From: an uncultured Oscillospiraceae bacterium
GTDB taxonomy: Bacteria; Bacillota; Clostridia; Christensenellales; CAG-138
DNA length: 58,736 nt
Reading direction: 5' to 3'
NCBI GenBank assembly: GCA_964437665.1
Contig: CAYTHS010000004.1
Coordinates: forward strand, 1 to 58,736
This document shows, in pieces, positions 3 through 37,441 of this stretch. Positions within the stretch are counted from its first letter, which is position 1. Each line of letters begins with the position of its first letter. Position numbers and translations under genes: made by a program. Under the pieces are notes generated by a model. It was not told where the DNA came from and did not search any database. It was given only the letters and a program-made list of their open reading frames with translations.

Positions 3-1352
3 GATGCGAGTGGATGTATCGTGAGGGCGGGTGGGATCGACCCGCACTGCCATATTGCGGGCGAGCCGCTCGAACTGCTGCGTGACGCAGGAAATCCGAT
101 CGTGCCAAACGTGACACGGCTTGGAAACGAATATGCGGGGATGGGCTATACGCTCGCCGTCAACGCGGCGATGCCCGCGCTCTCCGCGCGGCGCACGATC
201 ATTGAGGAAAACGCGATCCCGCTGCTGGACACGGCGAACCTCGTCTGGGCAGGGGAAAACCCGGTATTGCTCGCACTCGCCGCGCGTGGTTCCGACGGGG
301 ACCTAGACGAATATTTAGCCTGGCTGACGGCCGTCTCCGGCGCACGCGGGCTCAAGCTGATCAATCCGCGCGGGGGGGTAAGCGAGGGCGAATTACCGTA
401 CGAAAAACTGACAGACCGTCTGATCGACGCCTGCATCCGGCTGAGATTGCCGCATCCGCTGCACTTGCACCATCCGTTCCTCGGACGCTTGGGCGCATAC
501 GAGGCGGTTGCGGAGACGATTGACCGCGCAGCGGGAAGACCGCTGCACCTTGCACATCTCCAGTTTTACGGATACCGGCAGAACGAGGCGGGACGGACCG
601 TCTCCGCTGCGGAAGCGCTGGCGGACGCGCTCAACGCGCATAAAAACGTCACCTGCGACGCCGGCGCGGTCGTGCCCGGCGTGGCCGCGGCGGTCACGGC
701 GGACGCAGAGTTTGCCAAAAAGCTTGGCAAGGGCAAGCGCGGCTTCCGAAGCGAGCTTTGGGAAGCGGGCGGCGGGTTCGGCGTACTGCCGTTGCATTAC
801 GATCCGGAGAACGTCATGGGCGCCACGCAGTTTTTGACCGGACTTGAGCTCATGCTGCGCGTCGGCGACGCATCTAGGATCTTTCTGACCACCGACCATC
901 CCAATGGAGGACCGTTTACGGCGTATCCCTATTTGATCCGTCTTCTGACGGACAAGGCGTTCCGGGACGAAGAGATCGGGATGATGAATCCGAAGGCTGT
1001 GTCGCGCAGTGCAGTTCCGTCGATACAGCGGGAATACTCGCTCTATGAAATCGCGCAGGCGACGCGCTCCGGCCCCGCATCGGCGCTCGGCCTGCCGGAC
1101 CGGGGACATCTCGGCATCGGCGCGGCCGGCGGCGTCGCCGTGTACCGCGAACAGAAAAACAAAGAAAAGATGTTCCGCAAGCCCAAAAAGGTCATCCGCG
1201 GGGGGACGCATGTGCTCGCCGCACGCGAGCGCGGCTGCGATTTGCCCCGCGTGAAACGACGCGTGTCGGACTTGCTCAGCATACCGTTTGAAGAGGCGCA
1301 CCCGGGAAACACTTTTTTCGAAGAACACCGCGTCGCGCGGGAGGAGGCGTGA
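3..1352 (+). CDS. fwdA: Formylmethanofuran dehydrogenase subunit A / FhcA-like amidohydrolase (5'-truncated by window edge)
   Basis: Frame is open from position 3 (DASGCIVRAGGIDPHCHIAG). FwdA/FhcA motifs present: GLKLINP (carboxy-Lys position), HLHH, HLQFYGY, TDHPNGGPFTAYP, REYSLYEIA..TR.GPA..LGL, GHLGIGA. Confidence 0.85.
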   Translation, partial: DASGCIVRAGGIDPHCHIAGEPLELLRDAGNPIVPNVTRLGNEYAGMGYTLAVNAAMPALSARRTIIEENAIPLLDTANLVWAGENPVLLALAARGSDGDLDEYLAWLTAVSGARGLKLINPRGGVSEGELPYEKLTDRLIDACIRLRLPHPLHLHHPFLGRLGAYEAVAETIDRAAGRPLHLAHLQFYGYRQNEAGRTVSAAEALADALNAHKNVTCDAGAVVPGVAAAVTADAEFAKKLGKGKRGFRSELWEAGGGFGVLPLHYDPENVMGATQFLTGLELMLRVGDASRIFLTTDHPNGGPFTAYPYLIRLLTDKAFRDEEIGMMNPKAVSRSAVPSIQREYSLYEIAQATRSGPASALGLPDRGHLGIGAAGGVAVYREQKNKEKMFRKPKKVIRGGTHVLAARERGCDLPRVKRRVSDLLSIPFEEAHPGNTFFEEHRVAREEA

Positions 1353-1353
1353 T

Positions 1354-2094
1354 ATGGGCGTGGTACTGACGCTGAAAAAACCGCTGGATACCCTGCTCGA
1401 TCTTGAGCCGCTTTCGGCGCACGTTTCCGCCGGCATATGGGAGATTTCAGACACGCCGCTGCGGTATGGCAGGGAACGGATATCCGCCGGAGAGCTATTT
1501 TGCGTTCGGGAAACTGAGCAGACAGGGCTGACGCTGTGCGGCGACATACACCTGGCGATCAATGTCGGCGCGGGCATGCGAAACGGCAGGATAACAGCCG
1601 AATCGACCGTCGGTGCGGGTGCGGGCGCGCGTATGGCCGGCGGCGAACTTATTATTGCCGGCGACGCGGGCAAAAAAGCCTGTTTTGAAATGCAGAACGG
1701 ATTCGTGCAGATTTTCGGGGGCGCCGGAGATGGATTCGCGCACGGGGTCCGTCGCGGAACGCTGATTCTGTACGGCCGTGCTGAGGGCGAAGCCTGCGTG
1801 GATTTTCGCGGAGGGACGGCGCTGCTGCTTGGCGGTGTCGGAGATGCGGAAAAGCTTGCGGACGGGATGTCCCGCGGCACGGTGCTGCTGCCGAAAGGTA
1901 CCGCTGCGCCGGGTGGATTTTTACGCGCAGCGAACGGCGATTTCGTATTTTTGCGGCTGCTGTTTGCGGTACTCGGGCAGCGCGGGGTTTCTCTTCCGGA
2001 AGGCTGGCCCGGCGGCGTTTTCACGTGCTGGGTCGGCGATGCGGCGGGACTCGGCAAGGGCGAAATTTTCATTCCCATGGAGGAACGCGTATGA
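1354..2094 (+). CDS. fwdC: Formylmethanofuran dehydrogenase subunit C / FhcC-like GXGXG beta-helix protein
   Basis: GAGGAGG RBS, ATG at 1354. Repeating G..M..G.I...G.AG beta-helix pattern and C-terminal GDAAGLGKGEI. Directly follows fwdA. Confidence 0.8.
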   Translation: MGVVLTLKKPLDTLLDLEPLSAHVSAGIWEISDTPLRYGRERISAGELFCVRETEQTGLTLCGDIHLAINVGAGMRNGRITAESTVGAGAGARMAGGELIIAGDAGKKACFEMQNGFVQIFGGAGDGFAHGVRRGTLILYGRAEGEACVDFRGGTALLLGGVGDAEKLADGMSRGTVLLPKGTAAPGGFLRAANGDFVFLRLLFAVLGQRGVSLPEGWPGGVFTCWVGDAAGLGKGEIFIPMEERV

Positions 2095-2945
2095 AGCGGT
2101 TTGCTGTTCTGGGGACGAAACCCGGCTGGCACTGTGAGCGGACTATTGCAGCGTTCAAGCGGCGCGGGGCAGAAGCGGAATTTGTGACCGTGGAAACGCT
2201 GGTTGCTCCACTCGGCCTGCCGGAGGCGAAAGCGCCGCTGGCGGAATACGACGGGTTGCTGATCCGTGGAATCCCCGGCGGCTCGCTCGAACAGGTCATC
2301 TATCGAATGGACGCGCTGCACGTGCTCGAGCGCGGCGGCCTCAAATGCGTCAATCCACCGAAGACGATCGAAAAGACCGTCGATAAGTTTCTAACATCCG
2401 CTCTGCTTGAACAGGCCGGTTTGCCGGTCCCTCCAACGATTTGCTGCGAGGACAGGCAGGCTGCACAGGCCGCTTTTTTTATGCTGGGTGAAGACGTGGT
2501 ATACAAGCCGCTCTTTGGTTCCTGCGGCAACGGATTGCTCCGGCTGAAGAGTGTCGGCGAGGCGGAACGGGCGTTCGGCGAAATCGAAGAAGCGGGCGGC
2601 GTTTTCTATCTGCAGAAGTTCATTCCTTCCGGAAACAGCGATATCCGCGCGTTCGTGGTCGGCGGACACGTGATTGCGGCTATGAGACGTACGGGCAGCG
2701 ACTGGTTTGCAAACGTCTCAAAGGGGGGGCGCGCACAGGCGTATGTGCTCACGGCATACGAAGAAGAACTTGCGCTCGCGGCAGCGGCGGTTGTGCAGGC
2801 GGACGTGGCGGGGGTCGATCTGCTCGCGGCCGAATCGGGAGAGACGTTCGTTACCGAGGTCAACGGCTGTCCCGGCTGGCAGGGGCTTTCGAGCGTGACG
2901 GACGCGGACATTCCGGACGAAATCGTGTCGCTGTTTTTTGATTGA
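2091..2945 (+). CDS. RimK-family ATP-grasp alpha-L-glutamate ligase, MptN/Orf5-like
   Basis: ATGA overlap with the fwdC stop. Motifs GSLEQVIYRMDAL, NP..IEKTVDK, KPLFGS.G.G, YLQKFI, DIRAFVVGG, GVDLL, EVNGCPGWQG. Context with fwdAC. Confidence 0.8.
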   Translation: MKRFAVLGTKPGWHCERTIAAFKRRGAEAEFVTVETLVAPLGLPEAKAPLAEYDGLLIRGIPGGSLEQVIYRMDALHVLERGGLKCVNPPKTIEKTVDKFLTSALLEQAGLPVPPTICCEDRQAAQAAFFMLGEDVVYKPLFGSCGNGLLRLKSVGEAERAFGEIEEAGGVFYLQKFIPSGNSDIRAFVVGGHVIAAMRRTGSDWFANVSKGGRAQAYVLTAYEEELALAAAAVVQADVAGVDLLAAESGETFVTEVNGCPGWQGLSSVTDADIPDEIVSLFFD

Positions 2946-2977
2946 GGCCAAAGGAAAAGCCGGGCGAACGCCCGGCC

Positions 2978-3173: not shown

Positions 3174-3275
3174 AGCCGGGCGATCGCCCGGCTCTTTTAG
3201 ACTTTGGAGAAAATGTGGTTTCTTTGTTTCTTTCTTTTTAAGAAAGAAGAGTGGAGTATCTCTGCTTCTCTCTTT

Positions 3276-5555
3276 TCAAAGAGAGAAGTCCCCTTTGAGC
3301 GCGGCGAGTATGCGTTCCGGCGTGACCGGCAGGTCGTTGAACGGGCGTCCGACTGCGTTGGAGACCGCGTTTGCAACGGCGGCGGCGGCGGGCACGACGG
3401 AGCACTCGCCGATGCTCTTCGCGCCGAAGGGCCCGGTGGGTTCGATCTCCTCGATCAGATCGATCATCAGGCGTTTTGGCATTTCGTTCGCGCGCAGCAT
3501 GCGATAGGTCCTGAGGGTCGCGTTTTTAACGCGGCCGTTTTCGTCCAGCAGGATTCCTTCCGTGAGCGCGTAGCCCGCGCCCATCTGGATCGCGCCTTCG
3601 ATTTGCCCGCGTACCGAAAGCGGGTTGATTGCCCTGCCTACGTCGTGCACTGCGGCGTAGTCGAGCAGTTCGACCTTTCCGGAAAGCGTATCCACGCGCA
3701 CCTTGACGATGTGCGCGCCGTAGGAAATCACGGATGCGGGGGAGGCAGCCGTCTTTTCGCTGACGAGTTCGGTGAGCTTTTTGTGCCGCGCAAACTGGAC
3801 GATCTCGCCGAGCGTTGCGCTTTTGCCGTCCGGGGTAGCCGCGTGGCCGCCGGAGAATGTGAAGTCCGCATCGCTCGTTCCCAGCAATCCGGCGGCGAAA
3901 CCGGCGAGCTTTTTACGCATGTCCTCGGCTACGAGCAGCGCCGCGCGTCCGGAGACGAATGCGCCACGGCTTGAATAGTCGCCTAGCTGATAGGGCGTCA
4001 ACTCCGTGTCGGCGGAGACGACGGAAATCATCTCCATCGGCAGGCCGAGCACTTCGGAAATCACTTGTTTCTGCAGCGTGATGGAGGCGTTGCCCATCTC
4101 GTGCGAACCCGAAAAGAGCACGCAGCTGCCGTCGTCGTTCATTTTGAGCATCATGGCCGTGACGTCGGTACGTATGCCGAACATACCGTTGCCGTGCGCG
4201 CCGACGCTCACGCCCACGCCGATGCGCAGGCGCGAAGACGCGCTTTCCGCTTGCTCGCTGAGGCATTTTTCGTAACCGATCAGTTCTGCGGCGCGGTTGA
4301 GGCAGTCGACCGGCCGCGCGTTGCCATGCGGCTGGCCGAAACGGTAGTCCAAGCCGTCCGGCAGGGTGAGGTTGATGCGTTGCAGGGTCGGCATGTCCAT
4401 GCCGAGCGTCTTTGCGGCGCGGTTCATGAGCCGCTGCTGGGCAAAGAATGTCTGCGGCGAGCCAAAGCCGCGCATCGGGCCGCCGAGCGGCGTATTGGTT
4501 ACGACAGGGTACCCAGTGAAGCGCATGTTTTTGCAGCGATGCACCTTAAAGAATTTGCCGCACATCGCCCAGACGATGTTGCTTGTACCGGAAGCGTACG
4601 CACCCGCGTTGCAATATACGCGCATGTCCTCGGCGAGGATGGTGCCGTCGTCCGCAATGCCCATCTTCAGGCGGATTTTCATCGCGTGACGCGTACGGGA
4701 GGAGACGATGTCCTCGCGGCGCGTGAAAACCAGCTTGACAGGCCGGCCGCATTGTATCGAGAGCGCCGCTGCGACGGGCTCGGTGATCATGTCCACCTTT
4801 CCCCCGAACGCACCGCCGACCGCGGGCACACGCACGCGCACGCGGCTCATCGGCAGCGAAAAGATGCGGGAAAGGTTGACGCGGACGGCGAAGCTGTCCT
4901 GAGAGGAGGTGCAGACGGTCAGCTTGCCGCCAGCGTCGTAAAACGCGACGGAACCATGCGGCTCGAGCGCGCCGTGATGGATGCGCGGCACGGTATATTC
5001 GTCCTCGAAAACGTGCGGCGCGGTCTGCATCGCCTCGTCCACGTTCCCGCAGCTCTGGCGCACGACCTCCATGAGATTGCCTTTGTAAAGACCGCCGTGC
5101 GTATGTAGCACGTACGCGTCGTCGCGCATGCCGGCTTCGGGGTCGAAGTTGACGGGCAGCGGATCGTATTCCACGCGGATAGCGCGTACGGCTGCAGCGG
5201 CAAGGGCGGGCGTTTCCGCCGCGACGGCTGCCACCCGGTCGCCGATAAAGCGGACGGTGTCGTCGAACACGCGCTCGGTTTTGAAAATATCCAGCGTCTC
5301 GCCGCTGCTGTTGTAGTAGACGGCGGGCGTGTTTTGACAGGTGACGACCGCGTGCACGCCCTCCATCGCTTCGGCGGCGGAGGCGTCTATTCTTTTGATG
5401 CGTGCATGCGGGACGGGCGAAAAGAGCAACTTACCGTAAAGCAGGCCGGGGAACTTGAGGTCGTCCACGTAGCGGAGCTGCCCGGTCGCCTTGAGCGCCG
5501 CGTCGTCGATGGGGAACGGCGTGCCGACAGACCCGTTCTGCGGCGTTTCAGTCAT
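3276..5555 (-). CDS. Xanthine dehydrogenase family molybdopterin-binding subunit (copy 2)
   Basis: Motifs ATGQLRYVDD, HGALEPH, VGGAFGGK, MRGFGSPQ, GQIEGAIQMG, GAKSIGE (catalytic Glu retained). Confidence 0.92.
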   Translation of the reverse strand: MTETPQNGSVGTPFPIDDAALKATGQLRYVDDLKFPGLLYGKLLFSPVPHARIKRIDASAAEAMEGVHAVVTCQNTPAVYYNSSGETLDIFKTERVFDDTVRFIGDRVAAVAAETPALAAAAVRAIRVEYDPLPVNFDPEAGMRDDAYVLHTHGGLYKGNLMEVVRQSCGNVDEAMQTAPHVFEDEYTVPRIHHGALEPHGSVAFYDAGGKLTVCTSSQDSFAVRVNLSRIFSLPMSRVRVRVPAVGGAFGGKVDMITEPVAAALSIQCGRPVKLVFTRREDIVSSRTRHAMKIRLKMGIADDGTILAEDMRVYCNAGAYASGTSNIVWAMCGKFFKVHRCKNMRFTGYPVVTNTPLGGPMRGFGSPQTFFAQQRLMNRAAKTLGMDMPTLQRINLTLPDGLDYRFGQPHGNARPVDCLNRAAELIGYEKCLSEQAESASSRLRIGVGVSVGAHGNGMFGIRTDVTAMMLKMNDDGSCVLFSGSHEMGNASITLQKQVISEVLGLPMEMISVVSADTELTPYQLGDYSSRGAFVSGRAALLVAEDMRKKLAGFAAGLLGTSDADFTFSGGHAATPDGKSATLGEIVQFARHKKLTELVSEKTAASPASVISYGAHIVKVRVDTLSGKVELLDYAAVHDVGRAINPLSVRGQIEGAIQMGAGYALTEGILLDENGRVKNATLRTYRMLRANEMPKRLMIDLIEEIEPTGPFGAKSIGECSVVPAAAAVANAVSNAVGRPFNDLPVTPERILAALKGDFSL

Positions 5556-6039
5556 CGTTTTCCGCCTCCTCTCGTAAAAGTTCGGCGGCGTATTGAATCG
5601 CCTCGACGATCCGCGCGTAGCCGGTGCAGCGGCAGAGGTTACCGCTGATCGCCGTGCGGATTTCCTCCTCGGTGGGGTTTGGGTTTTGATTGAGCAGTGC
5701 CTTTGCTGTGAGGATCATTCCCGGCGTGCAGAAACCGCACTGGATTGCGCCGCACTCAACGAACGCGCGCTGCAGCGGATGCAGTTTGTTGCCGCGCGCG
5801 AGCCCTTCGATGGTCAGAATAGCGTGTCCGTCCGCCTTTTTGACGGGGACGATGCACGAGCGCACGGCTTCACCGTCCATCAGAACCGTACACGCGCCGC
5901 AGTCGCCGGTACCGCAGCCGCATTTTGCGCCGGTCAGGTCGAGATGATCGCGCAGTACGGAAAGCAGCGTTGCGTTGGGTTTTGCGTGTACAAGGTAGGT
6001 TCTGTTGTTGACTACCAGTCGGTAGGTTTCCGTTTCCAT
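5548..6039 (-). CDS. (2Fe-2S)-binding subunit of a xanthine dehydrogenase family enzyme
   Basis: GAKCGCGTGDCGAC, QCGFCTPG, GNLCRCTGY. Start refined to ATG at 6039. Confidence 0.92.
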   Translation of the reverse strand: METETYRLVVNNRTYLVHAKPNATLLSVLRDHLDLTGAKCGCGTGDCGACTVLMDGEAVRSCIVPVKKADGHAILTIEGLARGNKLHPLQRAFVECGAIQCGFCTPGMILTAKALLNQNPNPTEEEIRTAISGNLCRCTGYARIVEAIQYAAELLREEAENDD

Positions 6040-6058
6040 CGTTATTTGAAAAACTCCT

Positions 6059-7267
6059 TTATTTTTCTTTAGGGCAGAGCCGGTTAAGGATGCCGGCGTA
6101 TCCACTCAGCGCGGTTTGGATTTCGTCCAGCGAAATCCATTCGTCACGCGTGTGCGCCAGCGTTTCCGCGGACGGGCCGAAACCGACGGTCGGGATACCC
6201 GCTTCACCCGCGTAGTGGCTGCCGTTGGTACAGAAATTGTAGTGTGTGATCGCGGGCGAAACGCCGCCCTCGCGCAGGCCGGCGAGCACCTCCTGCACAA
6301 ACGGCGCGTCGCTTGCAAACGACCATCCGGGGAAGAAACGTTCGCCCGTAATCGTTTCGCCGGTGTAACAGCGCTGTTCGCTTTGCGCATACGAGACCTT
6401 TGCCGAAAGCTGAGGGATCTCATTTTTCGTTTCATCCAACGCGGCCAACAGGGGCGCGAGCACACTTTCCTTCGTTTCGCCGACGAGCAGCCGCCGGTCG
6501 TAGGTCGCGCGACAGTAACTCGGCACGACCGAGGCGCCGGGGTACGGCTTGGACTTGATATCGGTCAGTTCGAGGATACCGGGGCCGAGAACGCTCGAGT
6601 GCGGCGGAATGATTTCCCGGATGCGGCGCACGAGCTCTGCCATGTGGTAGACTGCGTTCACGCCCTTATGGGGGCTGGCGGAATGAGCGCTTTTGCCGAA
6701 TGTTTCCAAAACGATCTCCGCTCGTCCGCGCTGACCGATCTTGAGATTGCATTCCGAAGCTTCGCCGATTATAACGAGGTCCGGTTCGACCCGCGCGCTG
6801 ATTTCACGCGCTGCGACGCCTTCGAAACATTCCTCATGCACAACGCCCGCGACGGCGATTGCGCCCGCAAAGTGTCCGCCGGTCTTTTGCCAGTGTGCGG
6901 CGGCGGCCGCCGCCATGCATGCGAGCGCGCACTTCATATCGGAAGCGCCGCGCCCATAGAGCCGGCCGTCAGCGATCTCGGCGGCAAAGGGCGGATGCGT
7001 CCAGGCGTTCTCGTCCACGACCGGGACGGCGTCCATATGCCCGTCGAGCAGAATCGTTTTGCCGGGTATGTCGCCGTGAAAAACCGCGATGAGACTGCCG
7101 CAGCGGTCGATGAAGATTTCACCTGCGCTGCGCGAGCGGAAAAAAGCCGCAAGCACGTTTGCGACGCCCTCTTCTTCTCCGGAAACACTCGGTTCGGCGA
7201 TGAGTTCACGGCAGAGGGAAAGACAATCGTTCAACAGTTGCCCGTTCGGGGCGGATTGCTGATTCAT
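6059..7267 (-). CDS. M20 family amidohydrolase, YgeY-like
   Basis: DGHMDAVP, GRGASDMK, HEECFEG, GQRGRAEI, SAHSASP, FCTNGSHYAGEAGIPTVGFGP, AHTRDE. GGAGG RBS before ATG at 7267. Confidence 0.85.
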   Translation of the reverse strand: MNQQSAPNGQLLNDCLSLCRELIAEPSVSGEEEGVANVLAAFFRSRSAGEIFIDRCGSLIAVFHGDIPGKTILLDGHMDAVPVVDENAWTHPPFAAEIADGRLYGRGASDMKCALACMAAAAAAHWQKTGGHFAGAIAVAGVVHEECFEGVAAREISARVEPDLVIIGEASECNLKIGQRGRAEIVLETFGKSAHSASPHKGVNAVYHMAELVRRIREIIPPHSSVLGPGILELTDIKSKPYPGASVVPSYCRATYDRRLLVGETKESVLAPLLAALDETKNEIPQLSAKVSYAQSEQRCYTGETITGERFFPGWSFASDAPFVQEVLAGLREGGVSPAITHYNFCTNGSHYAGEAGIPTVGFGPSAETLAHTRDEWISLDEIQTALSGYAGILNRLCPKEK

Positions 7268-7322
7268 AGAATCCTCCAGGTTATGCAGCTGCCTGCAAAT
7301 ATAGGACGCGCAGGCGGTTGCG

Positions 7323-8219
7323 CTATTCTTGCGGGCGTTCGATTTCGTCCAGAAGGGGACTAGTGCGCGCGCCGGAGCGTTCAATTGCAAACGCGGCGCA
7401 GCGATTGGCGAATGAAAGCCGGTTCTTCGGCGCGTCGCCGCGCAGTTCCGAAAAGAGGTACGCCGCCGCAAATGCATCCCCCGCGCCGGTGGTGTCGACG
7501 ACGCGTGCGGGGGCGGGCGGAGAGAATACAAAGCCGTTTGGGATGCAGAGCGCCGCGCCGCGCGCACCCTGTGTGACCAAGAGCGATGGAACGCCTTGGG
7601 AAAACAGCGCGTCCGCGCCGGAACGGACGTCGTCGCTTCCGGTCAGTTTTGCCAGTTCCGGCGTACTCAGAAGCATTGTGTCGCAGGCTTGCACCAGCGG
7701 CGCGATTTCAGCCAGACCGTAACCGCAAAGCACCCCGCCCGGCGCAAAAAATACGCGGCCGCCATGCGCGCGTACGCGTCGTGCGGCCTCGACGCCCACC
7801 GCGGGAAACGACTCGGCGATATAGAGCGCGTCCGCTGAAAAATCGATCCCGTCAAGCTGTGAAACGTCGGTATAGACCGCGTCTCCGCCGAGCGAAAACA
7901 TAATTCGCTCGCCATTTTCATCGACGGCGATGAACGCGCCCGCCGTACGTCCCTGCGGAAGGCGGAGCAGGTGCGCGCAGGAAACCCGTTCGTCTGCAAA
8001 CGCGCGTATGATTGCGTCTCCGTCCGCGTCCCCTCCGACGGTGCCGAGGAAAACGGTTTCTGCACCGAGGCGGCTCAGTGCGACCGCAACGTTCGCCGCG
8101 GATCCGCCGGGGATGCGCCTGATTTCCAGCGGGGAAACGATGTCGTCCTGTTGTGGGAAAGTCTGGACGCGCGCGACGGTGTCCATTGCGGCGGCGCCCA
8201 TGACAAGAATGCGGTTCAC
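7323..8219 (-). CDS. PfkB/ribokinase family carbohydrate or nucleoside kinase
   Basis: GGSAANVAVALSRLG, VGGDADG, VVDTTGAGDAFAA. GTG start. Confidence 0.9.
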   Translation of the reverse strand: MNRILVMGAAAMDTVARVQTFPQQDDIVSPLEIRRIPGGSAANVAVALSRLGAETVFLGTVGGDADGDAIIRAFADERVSCAHLLRLPQGRTAGAFIAVDENGERIMFSLGGDAVYTDVSQLDGIDFSADALYIAESFPAVGVEAARRVRAHGGRVFFAPGGVLCGYGLAEIAPLVQACDTMLLSTPELAKLTGSDDVRSGADALFSQGVPSLLVTQGARGAALCIPNGFVFSPPAPARVVDTTGAGDAFAAAYLFSELRGDAPKNRLSFANRCAAFAIERSGARTSPLLDEIERPQE

Positions 8220-8220
8220 C

Positions 8221-9036: not shown

Positions 9037-9039
9037 GTG

Positions 9040-10761: not shown

Positions 10762-10766
10762 AACGC

Positions 10767-13417: not shown

Positions 13418-13434
13418 GTGAAAAAAAGCGCCTC

Positions 13435-18680: not shown

Positions 18681-18691
18681 GCTCACCCCCG

Positions 18692-24542: not shown

Positions 24543-24585
24543 GAGAACAGTTCCTTTCCGCTGGCCTGCGCGGGATGAACGGCGT

Positions 24586-30722: not shown

Positions 30723-30731
30723 GACGGCGCG

Positions 30732-32021
30732 TCACCTCCAGTCGGTTTCGTTCAGGATATCGACGACTTCCTGCAGATAGCGGCAGGCGGGCGCGCCGTT
30801 GAGCACGCGGTGATCGTAGGTCAGGCAAAGATTCATCACAGGCTCGATAAACACCCCGCCGTTCTTGGCGATCGGCATGTCCCGCAGTTTGCATACGCCA
30901 AGGATCGTTGTTTCCGGCGGGTTCAGAATCGGCGTGAACGAGGTCGCGCCCGCCATGGCGAGGTTTGTGACCGTCGTGGCAGCGTCGCCGAAGTCGCTTT
31001 CGGACAGCCCGCCGCTTTTGGAGCGTGCGGCGAGGCCGGAAACGTCCCGGCAGAGCGCGCGCAGCGTTTTTTTGTCCGCATTGCGCACGACGGGAACGAG
31101 CAGCCCGCGTTCGGTATCGACCGCTACGCCGATGTGCACCCCTTCCGGCAGAAGGAAGCTTTTTTCATCATGATACTGCATCCGCACGTCCTCGCGGGAA
31201 GCGAGCGCGCGGGACACGGCAAATACGATCATCGCCGTGTATGAAAGCTTGATTCCTTCTGCTGCATAGATCGGTTTGAGCCGTCTGTACGCCGAAGCGA
31301 GCAACGCAAAGCCGCTCTCGATGCAGACGGTTGTCTGCGCGGCGGTTTCGAGACTCTTTTTCATCGCGGCGGCGGTCGCGCGCTGTACACTGTTCATCGG
31401 GACGACCTTCACGCTCGCGGGCTTGCCGTACGTTTTCACGTCCGCGACGGTCACCATGCCAAGCAGCCCGGTGCCGCGGATATGCTCGTAAGAAAGGTGT
31501 TGCTTTTCGGCGAGCATCCTTGCGCGCGGCGTGATGGAAACCGGGTGTGCGGGGGATTGTTCCTTCGGCATGTCTGCCGCGGCGCGCACGTCGTCGATTG
31601 TGATTTTCCCATCGCGGGCGGTGCCGGTCACTGTGCTTGGATCTAATCCACGTTGCTGCATGACGGTTTTTGCGCGCGGGGTGGCGGATACCGCATAACC
31701 GGCGGACGACGGTTCAATCGCCGGCTTCGGCGCGGGTGCGGATTGTACAGCCCCGTGCGAAGACGCGGGGGAGGCGGACTCGCCCGGTTCGCCGATTGAG
31801 CAGATGGGTTCCCCGCATGGCGCGGAGTCGCCGGGTTCCAAAAAATATCGAAGCATCGTGCCGTCCGCAGAGGCGACGGCGTCGTTGGTGAGCTTTTCCG
31901 CTTCGATCACGGCGATCGGATCGCCGCGTTTCACCTTGGCGCCGATGGGAACGAGCCATTCGGAGACGACGCCTTCTTCCATAGACAGCCCGAATTTGGG
32001 CATAATTTCAATCGTTGCCAT
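30732..32021 (-). CDS. Dihydrolipoamide acyltransferase (E2), AcoC-like with two peripheral-subunit-binding domains
   Basis: MPKFGLSMEEG, lipoyl motif EAEKLTND, ATPRAK and ITPRAR binding domains, GLLVPVVR, TYDHRVLNG. Confidence 0.9.
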   Translation of the reverse strand: MATIEIMPKFGLSMEEGVVSEWLVPIGAKVKRGDPIAVIEAEKLTNDAVASADGTMLRYFLEPGDSAPCGEPICSIGEPGESASPASSHGAVQSAPAPKPAIEPSSAGYAVSATPRAKTVMQQRGLDPSTVTGTARDGKITIDDVRAAADMPKEQSPAHPVSITPRARMLAEKQHLSYEHIRGTGLLGMVTVADVKTYGKPASVKVVPMNSVQRATAAAMKKSLETAAQTTVCIESGFALLASAYRRLKPIYAAEGIKLSYTAMIVFAVSRALASREDVRMQYHDEKSFLLPEGVHIGVAVDTERGLLVPVVRNADKKTLRALCRDVSGLAARSKSGGLSESDFGDAATTVTNLAMAGATSFTPILNPPETTILGVCKLRDMPIAKNGGVFIEPVMNLCLTYDHRVLNGAPACRYLQEVVDILNETDWR

Positions 32022-32108
32022 TTTTTGCCCTCCCTGGGCGCGTATTTGTACTCGCGATGAAAAAAACGGGCCGAGGATGCGTTTCATCGCTGCCAAACGA
32101 CCGCCTTT

Positions 32109-33086
32109 TTAGAACGCCGCAATCTCTTTTGCGGCGCGTACAACGTCCGCAGACCTGAGCATATAATAGTCTTCGAGCACAGGCGCGAATGATACCGGCA
32201 CATCCAGGCACGTCACGCGTGCAACCGGCGCGGCGAGGTATTCAAAGTATTTTTCACCGATCATGGCGGAAATCTCCGCCGCCCAGCCGCCGACCTTCGG
32301 GCCTTCCTGCGCGATCACGAGACGCCCCGTCTTTGCGACCGACGCGGCGATCAGTTGCTCGTCGTAGGGCTTGATCGTGCGCAGATTGATCACTTCCGCC
32401 GAAACGCCTTCCTTTTCGAGTTCAGCTGCGGCTTTAAGCGCCATGCCGACGGTGATTTGCAGCGCGGCGATAGTCACGTCCGTGCCCTCGCGCTCGATCA
32501 CCCCCTTGCCGAGCGGCAGGGTATAGGGTTCCTCCGGCACGTCGCCCTTTGCGTTAAGCAGCATTTTATGCTCCAAAAAGAGCACCGGATCATCGCTCCG
32601 GATGGCGGAAATCAAGAGTCCTTTGGCTTCATACGGCGTGGCGGGGGAAACGATCACGAGGCCGGGAGTGCTTAAAAACCAGCTTTCGACCGTCGCGGAA
32701 TGATGGTAGGCGCAGCGGATACCCGCGCCCTGCGGCGCGCGGATGACGACGGGGCAGTTCGCCTCGCCCTGAAACATGAAGTTGAGCTTGGCGGAGCTGT
32801 TGACAATCTGGTCGAACGCAACGCCCGCGAAGTCCGCAAACATGATCTCCGCGACGGGCCGCAGCCCCGCGATGGCTGCGCCGTTTGCAAGGCCGACGAT
32901 TGCCGACTCGGAGAGTGCAGTGTCGAAAATGCGGTCCGGCCAGCGGTGATAGATGTTCTGCGTCAGGCCGAAATCGCCTCCCATTTTGGCGACGTCCTCG
33001 CCGAGCACGAACACGGAATCGTCCCGTTCCATCTCTTGGATCAGGGCTTCGTTGATCGCCTTGGTATAGGTCAGTTTGCGGCTCAT
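32109..33086 (-). CDS. TPP-dependent 2-oxoacid/acetoin dehydrogenase E1 beta
   Basis: VLGEDV, DTALSESAIVG, PVAEIMF.DF, HHS..VE, DDPVLFLEHK. Confidence 0.92.
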   Translation of the reverse strand: MSRKLTYTKAINEALIQEMERDDSVFVLGEDVAKMGGDFGLTQNIYHRWPDRIFDTALSESAIVGLANGAAIAGLRPVAEIMFADFAGVAFDQIVNSSAKLNFMFQGEANCPVVIRAPQGAGIRCAYHHSATVESWFLSTPGLVIVSPATPYEAKGLLISAIRSDDPVLFLEHKMLLNAKGDVPEEPYTLPLGKGVIEREGTDVTIAALQITVGMALKAAAELEKEGVSAEVINLRTIKPYDEQLIAASVAKTGRLVIAQEGPKVGGWAAEISAMIGEKYFEYLAAPVARVTCLDVPVSFAPVLEDYYMLRSADVVRAAKEIAAF

Positions 33087-34066
33087 CGTTCCACCTCCAC
33101 CGTAAATCCTTCGTATACGTGCGAAACCGCTTCCGAAACGTCCGGTACGGGGCTTTCGATCGAGAAACGCAGCATTTCTTTTATCTGCGCGTCTACATCG
33201 CCCTCGATGGCCCCGAGTTCTTCTTCGGATACTTTTTCGCGTTCCTTAAGTACGTTTCTCGTGAGCAGCACGGGGTCGCGCTTTTTCCAGTAGGCGAGCT
33301 CTTCTTCCGGCCGGTAGGAGGCGGGGTCTCCTGCAAAGTGCCCCTGCCATCGGTAGGTAACGAACTCGATCAGCGACGGGCCGCCGCCGCTTCTGGCGAT
33401 CTGCACCGCCTGTTCCGTGGTTTCGACGACGGCTTCCACATCGTTTCCGTCCACACGCCACGAAGGCACGCCGTAGCCGTCCGCCCACTGGCGCAGTTCT
33501 TGCTGCGGGTGCGCGGTGCCGCAGGGCGTCGAGATCGCGTAGCCGTTGTTGATGAGGCAGTAGACCACCGGCAGTTTCCAGGTTGCGGCCATGTTCAGGC
33601 TCTCGTGGCAGGTGCCTTCACCAAGCGTTCCATCGCCCATGAATACGGCGGAAACGTCGTCCGTGTGGCGGTATTTGGCCGCGAACGCCGTTCCGAGCGC
33701 GGTGACGACGGTCGAACCCTGAATGCCGTTGAAGCCGTGATTCCGGCAGGACCAGTCGTGGATATGCATGGAACCGCCGCGGCCGCCGTTGACGCCCGTG
33801 GCCTTGCCGAAAATCTCGGCCATAACGTATTTGGGATCGGTTCCGCATAAAAGAATCGCCCCGTGGCCGCGGTGGTCGGGGTATTTGTAGTCTGTTTTTC
33901 TCAGCGCGCGCACCACGCCCGCCTGACAGGCTTCCTGCCCGGTGGAAAGGTGCACGAAACCGGGGATGGTGCCGTTCGCTGCATATTCCTTGATCACGTC
34001 TTCAAAATTGCGGATCAAAAACATATCGCGGTAAAGTCCCTTGAGACGCTCTTTTTCCAATGCCAT
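33083..34066 (-). CDS. TPP-dependent 2-oxoacid/acetoin dehydrogenase E1 alpha
   Basis: PGFVHLSTGQEA, HRGHG, GRGGSMH, GDG..GEG...ESLNMAA.WKLPV....NN, TYRW.GH..GD. Confidence 0.92.
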   Translation of the reverse strand: MALEKERLKGLYRDMFLIRNFEDVIKEYAANGTIPGFVHLSTGQEACQAGVVRALRKTDYKYPDHRGHGAILLCGTDPKYVMAEIFGKATGVNGGRGGSMHIHDWSCRNHGFNGIQGSTVVTALGTAFAAKYRHTDDVSAVFMGDGTLGEGTCHESLNMAATWKLPVVYCLINNGYAISTPCGTAHPQQELRQWADGYGVPSWRVDGNDVEAVVETTEQAVQIARSGGGPSLIEFVTYRWQGHFAGDPASYRPEEELAYWKKRDPVLLTRNVLKEREKVSEEELGAIEGDVDAQIKEMLRFSIESPVPDVSEAVSHVYEGFTVEVER

Positions 34067-34287
34067 AATCATTCCTCCGATTTCAGATGCTCGACGCTGT
34101 CTGCGGTTTCTATAGATTCCCCGCGCGGCGCAGAAATGCCGGAGCGGGCGTTGTATGCATAAGAGGTGTGGCTGCCGGATGGGCGAGAACCGCTGTTTTG
34201 CGGCGCGGCGCCGCAGATACGACCGATAAGATTTTTAATGGAGAGACGTATTTTTGAATGGCTGGCGCGAATGTATCGCGCCAGCCG

Positions 34288-34360
34288 CAGGCTTTCAAAA
34301 GTCCCTGGGATTGTTAAGAGGCGCTGCCCCTTAACCCGTGTATATGCCGGCCGTGCCGGT
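34288..34360 (-). mobile_element. MITE-like family 1, partial copy B
   Basis: gtccctgggattgttaag...cttaacccg..tat..ccggc.gtgccggt matches the reverse complement of the right half of copy A. It abuts the hairpin ggctggcgcga-atgta-tcgcgccagcc. Confidence 0.6.
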
Positions 34361-34366
34361 CAGCCC

Positions 34367-35125
34367 TTATGCGCCGGGCTGGATATAGAGGATGCTGTAG
34401 AGCGTATATTCGCCGATGCCCGGGACCTCCGCGTCTACGCGGTCTTCGATCCAGGAGATATAGCATTCGCCGATTTCGTCGGCGGCGACGTTATGAGTGT
34501 ATTCGTCGGTGCAGATGAAGTCATAGCTGTCTGCTTCGACCATGCCGAGCGCGTCAAACACGTCCTGAACGCTGATTTTGTCCTTATAGGAGGTCATGAA
34601 CGCATCCGAACCGAAATTGATGTACGCAACTTCCCAGACAGCCCAGTCGGGGTCCTGCGCTTCGCCGACGACGACAGGGGCGTTGTCGCCTTCCAGCGTC
34701 AGGTACTTCTGGAGGATATCGCTGAGGACTTCGTCGCCGACATAACCGTCCGAGCCGATCACCTGCACGTCCTCGTTGCCCATGACGCCGCACTTGTCGT
34801 ACACTTCCTGAATCGAGTATGCCGAACGAAGATCGCCCTCGTAACGGGGCTGGTCGCTGGGGGTCAGGCCTTCGATGGCGTTATTCCACACGATGATGCG
34901 GGAAACGCCTTCCGCTGTGTCGGCAGGCTCTTCCGCCGCTTCGGCGGGTTCTTCCGCTGCTTCAGCGGGTTCTTCCGCCGCTTCAGCAGGCTCTTCCGCC
35001 GCTTCGGCGGGTTCTTCCGCTGCTTCGGCGGCGGGCTCGGTCGTCTCGGGTGCTTCCTGCGCGGTGCACGCAAACAGCGAAAATACCATCAACAGAGCAA
35101 ACAGCAAAGCAAGAGTTTTTTTCAC
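34367..35125 (-). CDS. Acidic lipoprotein with an (EAAEEPA)5 linker and two internally repeated domains
   Basis: GTG start with AAGGAGG RBS, lipobox LFAC. First gene of the ~17.6-kb minus-strand operon. Confidence 0.8.
   Translation of the reverse strand: MKKTLALLFALLMVFSLFACTAQEAPETTEPAAEAAEEPAEAAEEPAEAAEEPAEAAEEPAEAAEEPADTAEGVSRIIVWNNAIEGLTPSDQPRYEGDLRSAYSIQEVYDKCGVMGNEDVQVIGSDGYVGDEVLSDILQKYLTLEGDNAPVVVGEAQDPDWAVWEVAYINFGSDAFMTSYKDKISVQDVFDALGMVEADSYDFICTDEYTHNVAADEIGECYISWIEDRVDAEVPGIGEYTLYSILYIQPGA
34926..35030. repeat. Five tandem 21-bp coding repeats
   Basis: Unit gg(c/t)tcttccgc(c/t)gcttc(a/g)gc(g/a) x5 with no spacers. Units 1 and 4 are identical. Confidence 0.95.
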
Positions 35126-35217
35126 GATGGGTCCCTCCTTAAAGATGTTTCGGGCGGCAATACGTCCGATAAATATATTCTAAACTACCCGCGGCGCGGA
35201 TGTATATAATAATTGCC

Positions 35218-35229
35218 GCACATTTGTGC
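35218..35229. promoter_or_regulatory. Palindromic candidate operator GCACATTTGTGC
   Basis: Lies in the second divergent promoter region and shares its core with 15881-15894. Confidence 0.5.
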
Positions 35230-35321
35230 ATGTTTATCCATTCCTGCTGAAATGGGGCTGTTTTTCACGCAGGATTACGGTAGAATCATGTATATACTGT
35301 TGGAGAGGCGGTGAGCGGGCG

Positions 35322-35651
35322 GTGCGCAGAGTGACGCGGCATCCCGTGATAGAGATTGAACCGAAGGCTGAAATAACGATTGTTGCAGACGGAAAAACGC
35401 TGTATGCGCACGAGGGCGAAACCGTCGCCGCTGCATTGAGCGCCAACGGTATACGCGTGTTCCGGCATACGGCGAAACGGCACGAGCCACGCGGGATTTT
35501 CTGCGGGATTGGCCAGTGTACGGACTGCGTGATGGAGATCGACGGCGTTCCGAACCGGCGCGCGTGCATGACGATCGTGCGAGAAGGCATGGTCGTCAAT
35601 ACGCAGCAAGGTAACGGGAAATGCGGGGTAGGATGCGATGCAGATGTATGA
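35322..35651 (+). CDS. (2Fe-2S)-binding protein, HcnA / sarcosine oxidase alpha N-terminal-like
   Basis: GETVAAAL..NG, PRGIFCGIGQCTDC.M.IDG.PN.RAC. GTG start. Confidence 0.88.
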   Translation: MRRVTRHPVIEIEPKAEITIVADGKTLYAHEGETVAAALSANGIRVFRHTAKRHEPRGIFCGIGQCTDCVMEIDGVPNRRACMTIVREGMVVNTQQGNGKCGVGCDADV

Positions 35652-36723
35652 CGTGATCGTCGTCGGCGCGGGACCGGCCGGCCTCGGCGCTGCCATCGAA
35701 GCGGGAAAACATGGTGCAAGCGTGCTGCTGCTGGATGAAAATGCGCGTCCCGGCGGACAGCTCTTCAAGCAGATCCACAAATTCTTTGGATCCAGGGAAC
35801 ACTATGCGGGCACGCGTGGGTATGCCATCGGTCAAAACCTGCTTGCCGAAGCGGACGCGCTCGGCGTGGAGTTCCGGCTTGGCATGCGCGTTTGGGGCGT
35901 ATACCCGTACGGCGGCGTGTCCGCGACGGACGGTGAAACGAGCGTGCGTTTTTTTGGAAGGAAAATCATCCTGGCAACGGGCGCGTCTGAAAACGCGTTG
36001 AGTTTTCCCGGCTGCACGCTGCCCGGCGTGATGACCGCAGGCGCGGTGCAGACTATGGTCAACGTCCAGCATGTGCTGCCTGGAGAGCGGTTTGTGATGA
36101 TCGGCTCCGGCAATGTTGGGCTGATCGTGGCGTATCAGTTGCTGCAGGCGGGTGCGGAAGTTCGCTGCATCCTCGAAGCCGCGCCCAGAATCAGCGGTTA
36201 CGGTGTGCACGCGGCGAAGGTCAGGCGCGCTGGCGTGACGGTTTATACAGGGCGTACCATCGTCCGCGCGAACGGCAAAGACGGCGTGGAAAGCATCGTT
36301 ACGGCGGAAGTAGACGCGTGTTTTTGCCCGGTTGGAGGCACGGAAAAGACGATTGAATGCGACACGGTCGCGCTGGCGGTCGGACTTTCGCCGAGGATCG
36401 AGCTAGCAGGCGTGAGCGGCTGTGAAATGGCGTATTCAGCCGCACTCGGCGGCATGCTGCCGCTGCATAGCGACGATATGGAGACGACCTGCGAAAACAT
36501 GCTGATAGCGGGCGACCTTGCCGGCATCGAGGAAGCGAGTACGGCGCTGGACGAAGGCCGCATGGCGGGCTGCCGCGCGGCGTATCTGCTCGGCTGCCTG
36601 ACAAAAGAAGAATACGAAAAGGAAAAACGCGCGCTGCTTTCCCGGCTGAACGCGCTGCGGGCGGGGCCGTTCGGGGAAAAACGGCGTACGGCCAAGGAGG
36701 CTCTATGGAACACGATGCGGTGA
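35638..36723 (+). CDS. FAD/NAD(P)-dependent oxidoreductase, HcnB / opine oxidase A / proline dehydrogenase alpha-like
   Basis: VVGAGPAGLGAA, GGQLFKQ, ILATGASE..L.FPG.TLPGVM, IAGD.AGIEEA..A..EG. Confidence 0.88.
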   Translation: MQMYDVIVVGAGPAGLGAAIEAGKHGASVLLLDENARPGGQLFKQIHKFFGSREHYAGTRGYAIGQNLLAEADALGVEFRLGMRVWGVYPYGGVSATDGETSVRFFGRKIILATGASENALSFPGCTLPGVMTAGAVQTMVNVQHVLPGERFVMIGSGNVGLIVAYQLLQAGAEVRCILEAAPRISGYGVHAAKVRRAGVTVYTGRTIVRANGKDGVESIVTAEVDACFCPVGGTEKTIECDTVALAVGLSPRIELAGVSGCEMAYSAALGGMLPLHSDDMETTCENMLIAGDLAGIEEASTALDEGRMAGCRAAYLLGCLTKEEYEKEKRALLSRLNALRAGPFGEKRRTAKEALWNTMR

Positions 36724-37028
36724 ACGCCGAGATCGTCTGCCGCTGTGAGGAAGTCACTGCGGAGGAGATCATGGAGGCGATACGAAACGGCGCGGATTCG
36801 CTGGACGCGGTGAAGAGAGCCACGCGGGCGGGGATGGGATTCTGTCAGGGGCGCACCTGTAAGCGGCTGATCGCGCGCATGCTTTCCTGCTATTATGAAA
36901 TGCCGGTCGACCGGTTTTTACCGGGGAGCCTGCGTTTGCCGGTCGCGCCGGTCAAGCTCTCGCTGCTGGCGGAAACTGAGGATGTGCAGAACGGGAAAAC
37001 GGAGGACGGCGCATGCGAAAAATCCTGA
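36705..37028 (+). CDS. BFD-like [2Fe-2S]-binding protein
   Basis: IVCRCEEVT, KRATRAGMGFCQGRTC, R.PV.PV. Confidence 0.88.
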   Translation: MEHDAVNAEIVCRCEEVTAEEIMEAIRNGADSLDAVKRATRAGMGFCQGRTCKRLIARMLSCYYEMPVDRFLPGSLRLPVAPVKLSLLAETEDVQNGKTEDGACEKS

Positions 37029-37441
37029 TCGACTGCCGGGAAAGCATCCCATGTGATCCCTGCCGCTATGCTTGCCCCGCACATGCTATCGTGATCGAGG
37101 GCGACATTACGAACCTGCCGCAGGTGTTTCCGGAGCGCTGTACGGGCTGCGGGCTTTGCGTTGCGGCGTGTCCCGGCCAGGCGTGTTTCTTGGTGGACGA
37201 GTATTACGCCGAGGGGCGTGCAAGCGTGGATTTCCCTTACGAATACCTGCCGCTGCCCGAGGTGGGTATGCGCGTAACTGCGCGGGACAACGACGGTTGC
37301 GACGTATGCGAAGCGCTCGTGGAACAGGTGATTTTGCGCAAAAGCGCACAGAATACAGCCGTCGTGCGCGTGAGCGTGCCGAAAGAATTCGCATTCCACG
37401 TGCGCGGCATGAAGCCTCTCCGCTTTCGGGAGAGGGAATAG
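37013..37441 (+). CDS. 2x[4Fe-4S] ferredoxin-domain protein
   Basis: C..SIPCDPC..ACP and CTGCGLCVAACPGQA, plus the C-terminal PYEYLPLP..G domain. Confidence 0.88.
   Translation: MRKILIDCRESIPCDPCRYACPAHAIVIEGDITNLPQVFPERCTGCGLCVAACPGQACFLVDEYYAEGRASVDFPYEYLPLPEVGMRVTARDNDGCDVCEALVEQVILRKSAQNTAVVRVSVPKEFAFHVRGMKPLRFRERE

Follow-up and report, generated by a model that had tools for sequence, protein, structure and literature searches.

Genes for Mch, Ftr and Fhc are used in metagenome annotation as signatures of methanogenesis and methylotrophy. Here, homologues of these one-carbon (C1) enzymes were analysed in an uncultured Oscillospiraceae bacterium, in the first 58.7 kb of contig C4 (the window, that is, the whole stretch of DNA analysed) of a 2.96-Mb assembly that is 92% complete. 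The closest described system is FhcABCD of Methylorubrum extorquens (PDB 6S6Y), which acts together with Mch in the tetrahydromethanopterin (H4MPT)-linked formaldehyde oxidation of methylotrophs. The window contains the same enzyme families, with the metal ligands of FhcA kept, the same methenyl-to-formyl-to-formate logic and an adjacent RimK-type ligase gene. It differs in that MptG, MfnB and Mtd are missing from the organism, FhcB is a remnant of 295 aa, the host belongs to a strictly anaerobic lineage of the Clostridia, the mch genes stand in heterocycle-catabolic operons, and relatives possess up to about eight Mch proteins. Canonical Mch (EC 3.5.4.27; PDB 1QLM, 4GVQ) shares its family, the Arg183/Glu186 pair and the GSGPAR motif with Mch1 of the window. 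In contrast to canonical Mch, the cognate cofactor cannot be made here by the known route, other motifs are altered by clade, and the context is a transporter-hydrolase cassette. Haloarchaea lack the enzymes specific to methanopterin biosynthesis, and their Mch homologue HVO_2573 has been proposed to use tetrahydrofolate (PMC8305020). As here, a Mch homologue is found in an organism not using methanopterin, but HVO_2573 is a single housekeeping copy in a control genome without Ftr, whereas Mch of the window belongs to a catabolic cassette. The enzyme families themselves, and the urate-type hydrolases around them, are known; neither their combination here, nor their independence from synthesis of the cofactors, nor the radiation of Mch paralogues is known to have been described. 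The Mch, Ftr and Fhc genes are intact and, as firmly predicted from the sequences, tied to cassettes for the uptake and breakdown of N-heterocycles, in which they would work only at the oxidation level of formate and independently of endogenous H4MPT or methanofuran (MFR) synthesis.

The heterocycle side of the locus is best compared with the reductive uric acid (2,8-dioxopurine) pathway of E. coli, C. difficile and C. sporogenes, whose enzymes are XdhD, YgfK/UacX, SsnA, HyuA, YgeY, YgeW/UacY and YgeX (PMC12507026; bioRxiv 10.1101/2025.04.24.650524). The window likewise clusters an XDH-type hydroxylase, a UacX-type Fe-S reductase of the dihydroorotate dehydrogenase (DHODH) fold, and SsnA-, HyuA- and YgeY-like hydrolases. 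It lies nearest to the C. difficile variant with UacX; the architecture of the UacX-like protein matches that of C. difficile UacX (PMC12507026), and a C3 unit or pyruvate is the likely shared end product. It differs in lacking YgeW/UacY, YqeA and YgeX and in possessing two Mch, Fhc, a DAO complex, a pyruvate dehydrogenase (PDH)-type complex, a BMP-type ABC transporter and an ECF transporter. Moreover, the window copies are only 27-35% identical to the E. coli urate-pathway proteins by tblastn (YgeY-like 29%, HyuA-like 35%, SsnA-like 27%), and with the exception of the YgeY-family protein (427 bits, cut-off 321) they score below the cut-offs of the urate-pathway models (SsnA-like 263 against 444, HyuA-like 368 against 393, and the XDH-type enzymes). 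Better orthologues are found elsewhere in the genome: ygeW (64%) and ygeY (58%) on C65; ygfK (43%) and, beside it, ssnA (34%) on C43; xdhABC (43-51%), hyuA (40%) and guaD on C18; and yqeA on C96 and C1. No match to ygeX was obtained by tblastn in this assembly of 92% completeness. What looks like a canonical set of reductive urate genes is dispersed over C18, C43, C65, C96 and C1. The window set was rejected as the canonical urate pathway because of these better orthologues on other contigs, and it is probably a paralogous pathway for a different, related heterocycle.

Long open reading frames (ORFs) of the window were scanned against Pfam and NCBIfam models, and selected proteins were compared with the PDB and by tblastn. 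All genes named in a first-pass annotation of this DNA were recovered where it had placed them, and both of its mch genes do match the Mch family model. Mch1 exceeds both cut-offs (PF02289, 292 against 25; TIGR03120, 237.9 against 228.8). Mch2, 26% identical to Mch1, passes PF02289 (123 against 25) with 118.5 against 228.8 for TIGR03120, and is by sequence a member of the family with no equivalog standing. Mch1 also matches PDB 1qlm over its full length (197 bits) and has the equivalents of Arg183 and Glu186, which we take, from the 2012 structure paper, to be the catalytic pair in A. fulgidus numbering. The corresponding R-x-x-E is aligned in Mch1, in Mch2 and in all 46 aligned family members of every clade. 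GSGPAR is intact in Mch1 and, across the family, either intact or changed to SGPxR/K, while QKAGW, FAPA and AMGRTND are altered in a clade-specific manner.

It can be observed in the maximum-likelihood tree that Mch2 forms a separate, long-branched clade and that the two solved archaeal Mch proteins fall outside a superclade of 29 anaerobe sequences with at least five subclades. Two genomes of the family to which the window belongs, G425 and G417, contain about eight and about six full-length Mch genes, respectively. Their paralogues are scattered across the subclades as orthologous pairs, and the paralogy is therefore old. The Mch genes of G425 occupy eight separate loci, six of which also contain genes of a BMP-type ABC transporter. 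At two loci of G425 (L038 9175-9873 and L040 9020-9736), Mch-like proteins of about 235 aa directly follow full-length paralogues; that in L038 matches Pfam MCH in two stretches with 56 bits. These short proteins could represent either a partner subunit or the decayed product of a duplication.

The window opens within fhcA, and the missing part of the locus was found on another contig of the same assembly. C82:1016-2092 encodes Ftr/FhcD (TIGR03119, 358 against 292.6; NF002554, 369 against 297), for which M. barkeri Ftr is the first PDB match (1m5s, 272.4 bits), followed by 6s6y_D (268.6 bits). C82:132-1019 is the 295-aa FhcB-like ORF. In closed relatives, ftr and the short fhcB-like ORF also lie directly upstream of fhcA, and evidently C82 adjoins the start of the window. 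A genome-wide search returned one Ftr copy per genome in this assembly and in five relatives, each immediately beyond fhcA. FhcA has M. extorquens FhcA as its closest solved relative (6s6y_A, 278 bits), to which its metal-ligand motifs (HxH, K, H, H and D-H) can be aligned, and a full-length orthologue in G001 exceeds the equivalog cut-off (TIGR03121, 405.8 against 392.75). From the constant position of Ftr and the PDB relatives of FhcA, FhcC and Ftr, it follows that the locus is an operon of fhcD, fhcB-like, fhcA, fhcC and rimK, and more than two stray subunits. The ligase encoded last has MptN as its best model (NF040720, 226 against 350) and passes the broader TIGR00768 (201.8 against 143.4). 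Ftr/FhcD, the FhcB-like ORF, the PDH-type E1-alpha/E1-beta/E2/E3 set and the HcnAB/SoxA-like DAO partners go beyond the first-pass annotation.

In this genome, the genes divergent from Ftr encode a DeoC-type aldolase, a SorC/DeoR regulator, a zinc-dependent alcohol dehydrogenase, a kinase-like protein and a sugar ABC transporter. In a distant Bacillota metagenome-assembled genome (MAG; L030 in G006), a comparable string begins with PfkB, ADP-ribosylglycohydrolase, a zinc-dependent alcohol dehydrogenase and an FGGY kinase and ends with an ECF transporter (RibU-like S, T, A and A'), an ATP-grasp ligase, a full-length FwdB (403 against 328), FwdA and Ftr; the linkage of PfkB, ECF and fhc is common to this MAG and the window. 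In a Chloroflexi MAG, a divergent Ftr lies beside a zinc-dependent alcohol dehydrogenase, an amidohydrolase, a GlcD/GlcF-like pair, a DeoC aldolase, an FGGY kinase and an MttB/corrinoid pair. That ECF transporter, kinase and ATP-grasp ligase recur beside fhc suggests that a cofactor or its precursor is taken up and tailored, and the sugar and polyol genes nearby are suggestive of a side chain of the ribosyl or ribityl type. A second, divergent type of Ftr, which scores about 89 bits with PF01913 where the main type scores about 180, was seen at G007:C42 (L031 9530-10411), G425:C26:10603-11043 and G465:C82:4499-4939, the MttB and corrinoid neighbours being those of the Chloroflexi MAG. The ADP-ribosylglycohydrolase-family gene of L030 (866-1903) stands right after the PfkB kinase, upstream of the ECF-fhc string, an arrangement similar to the uncharacterised yegU/yegV pairing of E. 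coli.

MptG is the committed enzyme of methanopterin synthesis, and MfnB makes the furan ring of methanofuran. MptG (TIGR00144) was absent from all 11 Mch-positive genomes searched, three of them closed, with control genomes positive, and MfnB (PF04476) from 4 of 4 genomes, with two methanogen controls positive. H4MPT and MFR are firmly not produced via the known routes in these organisms, which leaves room for cofactor uptake. Either scavenging of the cofactors or repurposing of the enzymes is therefore required, as the first-pass annotation had anticipated. The F420-dependent Mtd (PF01993) was likewise absent (0/14 genomes), no Mer (TIGR03555) scored above the cut-off, with only luciferase-like relatives in two genomes, and no formiminotransferase-like gene was found. 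The N-terminal domain of MtdA/B (PF09176) gave zero matches but is uninformative, since no control genome was positive either. A Mer-like gene of the luciferase family with 187 bits is carried by the Mch-positive genome G506. From the absence of Mtd and of any Mer above its cut-off, the encoded enzymes are confined to the methenyl-to-formyl-to-formate segment. The earlier suggestion that C1 units from a methylated heterocycle are oxidised here loses its footing at this point, as no methylene-to-methenyl enzyme is available.

The arrangement is not due to chance. Nine loci in other MAGs, which belong to several genera and include three closed chromosomes, encode close relatives of Mch1 (66-85% identity), and tblastn with window proteins recovered the same gene set there in nearly the same order. 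A binning artefact or archaeal contamination was rejected, the same cluster being present in three closed bacterial chromosomes, and the association is not peculiar to one genome. Its distribution is patchy: of 399 genomes sampled evenly across the class, one, namely its own, contains Mch; in the family the number is 6 of 121, and five other genomes of the same genus have none. The cluster thus behaves as an accessory unit that is held together. Furthermore, Ftr was detected in 13 of 14 distinct Mch-positive genomes, including the distant Bacillota MAG and the Chloroflexi MAG, and in 0 of 7 Mch-negative relatives (one-sided Fisher test, about 7e-5, calculated by hand with kinship ignored).

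More distant Mch homologues (36-57% identity) were found in Thermoanaerobacteraceae, other Bacillota, Chloroflexi and one unbinned metagenome contig, and the core neighbours are still present at 36-49% Mch identity in the first three groups. This core comprises a BMP-type ABC transporter and an Amidohydro_1 protein adjoining Mch, often with a DAO/Fer2_4/Pyr_redox_2/BFD/Fer4 set, together with an E1/E2 complex, an FMN_red-family protein, a Polysacc_deac_1 protein and GntR/UTRA or RpiR regulators. At 17 distinct Mch loci, the BMP-type transporter was present 13 times, an amidohydrolase (the window homologue or a related cog0402-type protein, within about 9 kb of Mch) 12 times, FMN_red 9 times, E1/E2 (within the same distance) 7 times, the DAO complex 6 times, a Mo-hydroxylase 3 times and Fhc twice. 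The E1/E2 genes lie near Mch in the Chloroflexi MAG too, and the four HcnAB/SoxA-like partner proteins flank Mch also in L022, L023, L035 and L042. A hint of a creatininase/ArfB-type Fapy deformylase in L023 was rejected, the protein being an inosose hydrolase of the IolN type. The habitat, according to sequencing runs, is sludge, wastewater and biogas reactors.

Regarding the substrate, the binding protein of the BMP-type transporter is informative. Its top PDB match is the riboflavin-binding RfuA (4iil, 100.8 bits), with PnrA/TmpC (2fqw) at 27 and BmpD at 25 bits, and it is by sequence apparently not close to the purine-nucleoside binders. RfuA (TP0298) is the riboflavin binder of the spirochete RfuABCD ABC transporter (PDB 4IIL; PMC3573665). 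RfuABCD has the same four-gene BMP-ABC architecture as the window transporter, and RfuA is the closest solved relative by far; however, RfuABCD is a locus of the vitamin-salvage type, whereas the window transporter lies inside a catabolic operon, and at this moderate similarity the ligand is only predicted. The label of purine or nucleoside catabolism given in the first-pass annotation therefore holds at the level of families only, with better urate orthologues elsewhere and a binding protein nearest to RfuA. In a Thermoanaerobacteraceae cassette, the nearest relatives of the binding protein are Lbp, AtzT and BmpD and the amidohydrolase is cytosine-deaminase-like, and one Mch cassette contains a RibD_C protein. 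Cationic methylpurine nucleosides, flavin, lumazine or deazaflavin compounds, and methanopterin variants were considered as substrates and are not distinguishable from the present evidence. The proposal in the first-pass annotation of 7-methylguanosine (m7G) as substrate, broken down to sarcosine, is speculative. Rfam scans at gathering thresholds of the window and 11 related loci gave no riboswitch, and hence no clue to the ligand.

The features of the window are collected in Table 1. The catabolic genes form a minus-strand string of 16.5 kb (34072 to 17532) in the order E1-alpha, E1-beta, E2, E3, SsnA-like, UacX/PreA-like, Mch2, BMP binding protein, ATPase, two permeases, cog0402 amidohydrolase, Mch1 and DAO flavoprotein, so that Mch2 lies between the UacX-like reductase and the BMP-type transporter. 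The DAO gene ends the string and is followed by a terminator-like hairpin at 17411-17389, the sole notable item in promoter and terminator scans, whose counts were near the shuffled expectation. The DAO protein and its four small redox partners resemble HcnABC, opine oxidase or heteromeric amine dehydrogenases of the sarcosine-oxidase type. The 347-aa ORF between the divergent E1-alpha and Fer2_4 genes, partially conserved in the relative locus L003, may be a regulator.

Table 1. Features located in the window, with coordinates, strand and the basis of each assignment.
Feature	Coordinates	Strand	Basis and remarks
fhcA/fwdA-like amidohydrolase (formyl-amine hydrolase)	3..1352	+	TIGR03121 337 bits; 5' end missing at contig start
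fhcC/fwdC-like subunit	1288..2094	+	TIGR03122 93 bits, below cut-off 130.65; best PDB match 6s6y_C
RimK-family ATP-grasp ligase, MptN-like	2025..2945	+	Pfam RimK 95.8 bits
XDH-family Mo-hydroxylase 1, large subunit	3276..5555	-	Pfam MoCoBD_1/2, Ald_Xan_dh_C; XdhA models 561 bits, below cut-off; 31% identity to E. coli XdhA
Hydroxylase 1, [2Fe-2S] small subunit	5548..6105	-	Pfam Fer2_2, Fer2
YgeY-family M20 hydrolase (paralogue)	6059..7267 (refined start)	-	NF009555 427 bits, above cut-off 321
PfkB-family (ribokinase-like) kinase	7323..8219	-	Pfam PfkB 169 bits; ribokinase models 143 bits, below cut-off
ECF transporter	8221..11777	-	T 8221-9036, fused A-A' ATPase 9040-10761, S 10767-11777; Pfam CbiQ, ABC_tran x2, ECF_trnsprt; ECF-ribofla_trS match weak
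XDH-family hydroxylase 2	12081..15756	-	Large 13435-15756, FAD 12542-13417, [2Fe-2S] 12081-12545 (refined starts); Pfam MoCoBD_1/2, FAD_binding_5, CO_deh_flav_C; tblastn with E. coli XdhA/B/C
HyuA-like hydantoinase/dihydropyrimidinase (paralogue)	15946..17325	+	TIGR02033 367.8 bits, below cut-off 393.25
DAO-family FAD amine dehydrogenase (SoxB/ThiO-like)	17532..18695	-	Pfam DAO 209 bits; ThiO and SoxB models below cut-off
Mch1, Mch-family cyclohydrolase	18692..19660	-	Pfam MCH 292 bits; overlaps genes on both sides
cog0402 deaminase-type amidohydrolase	19653..20966	-	Pfam Amidohydro_1 192 bits; top PDB match MTA/SAH deaminase 4f0r, 201 bits
BMP-type ABC transporter	21017..25695	-	Two permeases, double ATPase, binding protein 24586-25695; Pfam BPD_transp_2 x2, ABC_tran x2, Bmp
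Mch2, divergent Mch-family paralogue	25728..26675	-	Pfam MCH 123 bits
PreA/UacX-like DHODH-fold reductase with 4Fe-4S domain	26709..27917	-	Pfam DHO_dh, Fer4; NF006183 149 bits, below cut-off
SsnA-like amidohydrolase (paralogue)	27910..29244	-	NF005540 263 bits, below cut-off 444
PDH-type 2-oxoacid dehydrogenase complex	29331..34072	-	E3, E2, E1-beta, E1-alpha; Pfam matches; TIGR01350 517 (cut-off 409), NF006667 335 (cut-off 321), TIGR03182 326 (below cut-off 394)
Conserved 347-aa ORF	34166..35209	+	Zero Pfam or NCBIfam matches
HcnAB/SoxA-like partner subunits of DAO enzyme	35226..37441	+	Pfam Fer2_4, Pyr_redox_2, BFD/SO_alpha_A3, 2x[4Fe-4S]; TIGR01372 soxA 152 bits, partial match

With a probability of roughly 45%, the window and C82 are read here as a conserved, patchily distributed catabolic super-cluster in which a carbon at the formate level, of the type N-CH=N(+), arrives on an imported compound, a ribityl- or ribosyl-type N-heterocycle of the pterin, flavin or purine kind, and does not cycle as a C1 unit on H4MPT made by the cell. 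We infer every reaction and substrate that follows. Initially, a Mch paralogue, each matched to a transporter, would hydrolyse the cyclic amidinium to an N-formyl group. Ftr/FhcD would then move the formyl group to an amine carrier on an Fhc-type complex, where FhcA would hydrolyse it to formate. The carrier would not come from the known MFR route; it is probably built up from an imported precursor, with the adjacent ECF transporter serving for uptake, PfkB for phosphorylation and the RimK/MptN-like ligase for extension. Deamination of what remains of the ring would fall to the cog0402 amidohydrolase and N-dealkylation to the DAO/HcnAB-like dehydrogenase. The two XDH-type enzymes would subsequently hydroxylate or dehydroxylate it, the UacX-like enzyme would reduce it, and the SsnA-, HyuA- and YgeY-like hydrolases would open it, all of them paralogues of the urate pathway. 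The carbon skeleton would end at the PDH-type complex. Cassettes without Fhc may rely on simple deformylases. The first-pass annotation had offered, as its second model, that Mch and FhcA are repurposed to open the ring to an N-formyl intermediate and deformylate it. Its spirit, Mch as a hydrolase of a ring or amidinium in imported compounds, is favoured by the expansion of paralogues, but plain deformylation by FhcA is too simple, as a whole Fhc-type module is kept.

Within the favoured reading, the carbon is somewhat more probably a ring carbon of the heterocycle itself, because paralogues, binding proteins and deaminases are diverse between cassettes. To a lesser yet substantial degree, it may be a methenyl or formyl group on a methanopterin-like cofactor that is scavenged from methanogens and then degraded. 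The nearly canonical scores reached by Mch1, Ftr and FhcA favour this variant, as do the RfuA- and RibU-like uptake proteins, the RibD_C protein, the MptN-like ligase and the methanogenic habitat. Extended to a general picture, anaerobes beside methanogens (Christensenellaceae-like Clostridia, other Bacillota and Chloroflexi) would import C1-loaded archaeal cofactors of the methanopterin type and dismantle them, a scenario that is conceivable but unlikely. Horizontally acquired Mch, Ftr and Fhc would in this case remove the methenyl or formyl group. Degradation of the pterin, aryl-ribitol and ribose moieties would be left to the XDH-type hydroxylases, urate-pathway paralogues, DAO-type N-dealkylase and sugar and polyol enzymes, and the number of Mch cassettes would reflect that methanopterin has several natural variants.

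Several observations count against the reading to which we give 45%. Ftr, full-length FhcA and Mch1 reach or exceed the equivalog cut-offs of models trained on genuine H4MPT/MFR enzymes, so that H4MPT- or MFR-like substrates are easier to reconcile with them than a small heterocycle. There are one or two Ftr/Fhc sets per genome against up to about eight Mch paralogues, and the Fhc steps presuppose a hypothetical formyl acceptor. The match of the FhcB-like ORF is weak and covers only the C-terminal part of FwdB/FhcB (E 3.6e-6 to TIGR03129; pairwise E 0.002). Most of the synteny comes from one bacterial family, and the co-occurrence counts ignore phylogeny; moreover, G506, a genome of the same family with three Mch matches, has no Ftr and is the sole exception. 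Finally, the single biogas-fermenter RNA run amounts to four short exact contigs, on the genes of the FAD subunit, DAO and Mch1, and indicates at most low-level presence, not co-induction.

The scores just mentioned, together with the catalytic residues present in Mch1, Ftr and FhcA, are also an argument for the main rival, which corresponds to the first model of the first-pass annotation: a short H4MPT/MFR-dependent C1 branch working catalytically with cofactors scavenged from neighbouring methanogens, in which formimino- or formyl-type C1 would pass from the heterocycle onto the pterin, Mch2 and Mch1 would cyclise or hydrolyse it, Ftr would transfer it and Fhc would release formate. An ECF transporter of the vitamin type, a kinase and an MptN-like glutamate ligase adjoining fhc in two distant lineages fit the uptake and retention of such a cofactor, the habitats are typically methanogen-rich, and the two Mch paralogues could act as cyclodeaminase and cyclohydrolase. 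Nevertheless, a single catalytic cofactor does not account for about eight Mch paralogues, the majority of which have transporter genes of their own alongside; formiminotransferase-like and methylene-level enzymes were not found, as described above, and the mch genes stand between catabolic hydrolases, outside the fhc operon. The H4MPT route would also forgo the ATP that the tetrahydrofolate route yields in clostridial purine fermentation. Such a branch is accordingly doubtful. In classical purine fermentation of clostridia, C1 units pass through formimino- and methenyl-tetrahydrofolate, and it could be supposed that Mch and Ftr act on such folate derivatives here. The haloarchaeal Mch, thought to be a methenyl-tetrahydrofolate cyclohydrolase in the absence of methanopterin (PMC8305020), lends this supposition a precedent. 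However, the control Haloferax volcanii has Mch and no Ftr, which leaves the Ftr/Fhc module uncovered; Ftr and Fhc require an amine acceptor of the methanofuran type, and the expansion of paralogues is again unexplained. A role on folate is therefore improbable.

The possibility of no functional link, with fhc and mch as a remnant from archaea or methylotrophs beside ordinary purine and pyrimidine operons, could draw on the position of the fhc operon on the strand opposite to the long catabolic string, the degenerate FhcB and the weak FhcC. It is contradicted by the location of both mch genes inside that string, with Mch1 overlapping both neighbours, by the intact state of all catalytic motifs, by the recurrence of the association across genera and phyla, and by the genome-wide co-occurrence of Mch and Ftr, and it is very improbable indeed. 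The claim of the first-pass annotation that the Mch, Fhc and ligase genes belong to an N-heterocycle catabolic super-cluster is in this respect well borne out.

Beyond the cluster, two further observations were made. A 1573-aa protein with HD and cytidylyltransferase-like domains is encoded at 38122-42843 (+) of the window, and a homologue (37% identity) lies at L037 13872-18001 in the relative G425, a few genes downstream of a Mch cassette; this may be a coincidence or an additional link. The GC content falls to 0.52 at 46000-48000, at the DUF1836 and DegV genes, compared with about 0.60 over the cluster.

Full-text literature searches returned no paper that describes homologues of Mch, Ftr or Fhc in Clostridia or assigns them to the breakdown of heterocycles. 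Intact Mch, Ftr and Fhc in fermentative anaerobes without markers of cofactor synthesis, linked to transporters and ring-cleaving hydrolases, point to a job not previously described. The role of methanogen-type C1 enzymes in bacteria without the marker genes of cofactor synthesis is thereby made testable, and clonable targets are available in the Mch paralogues, the binding protein related to RfuA, and the Fhc complex together with its putative carrier. If the favoured reading is true, the cluster would represent a new reaction class in the anaerobic breakdown of N-heterocycles, the hydrolytic opening of N-CH=N with formate released by an Fhc-type machine, and if the cofactor is itself the substrate, a catabolic route would for the first time be revealed for a coenzyme of methanogens. 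Metagenomes from digesters and the gut would then need correction of their pathway calls.

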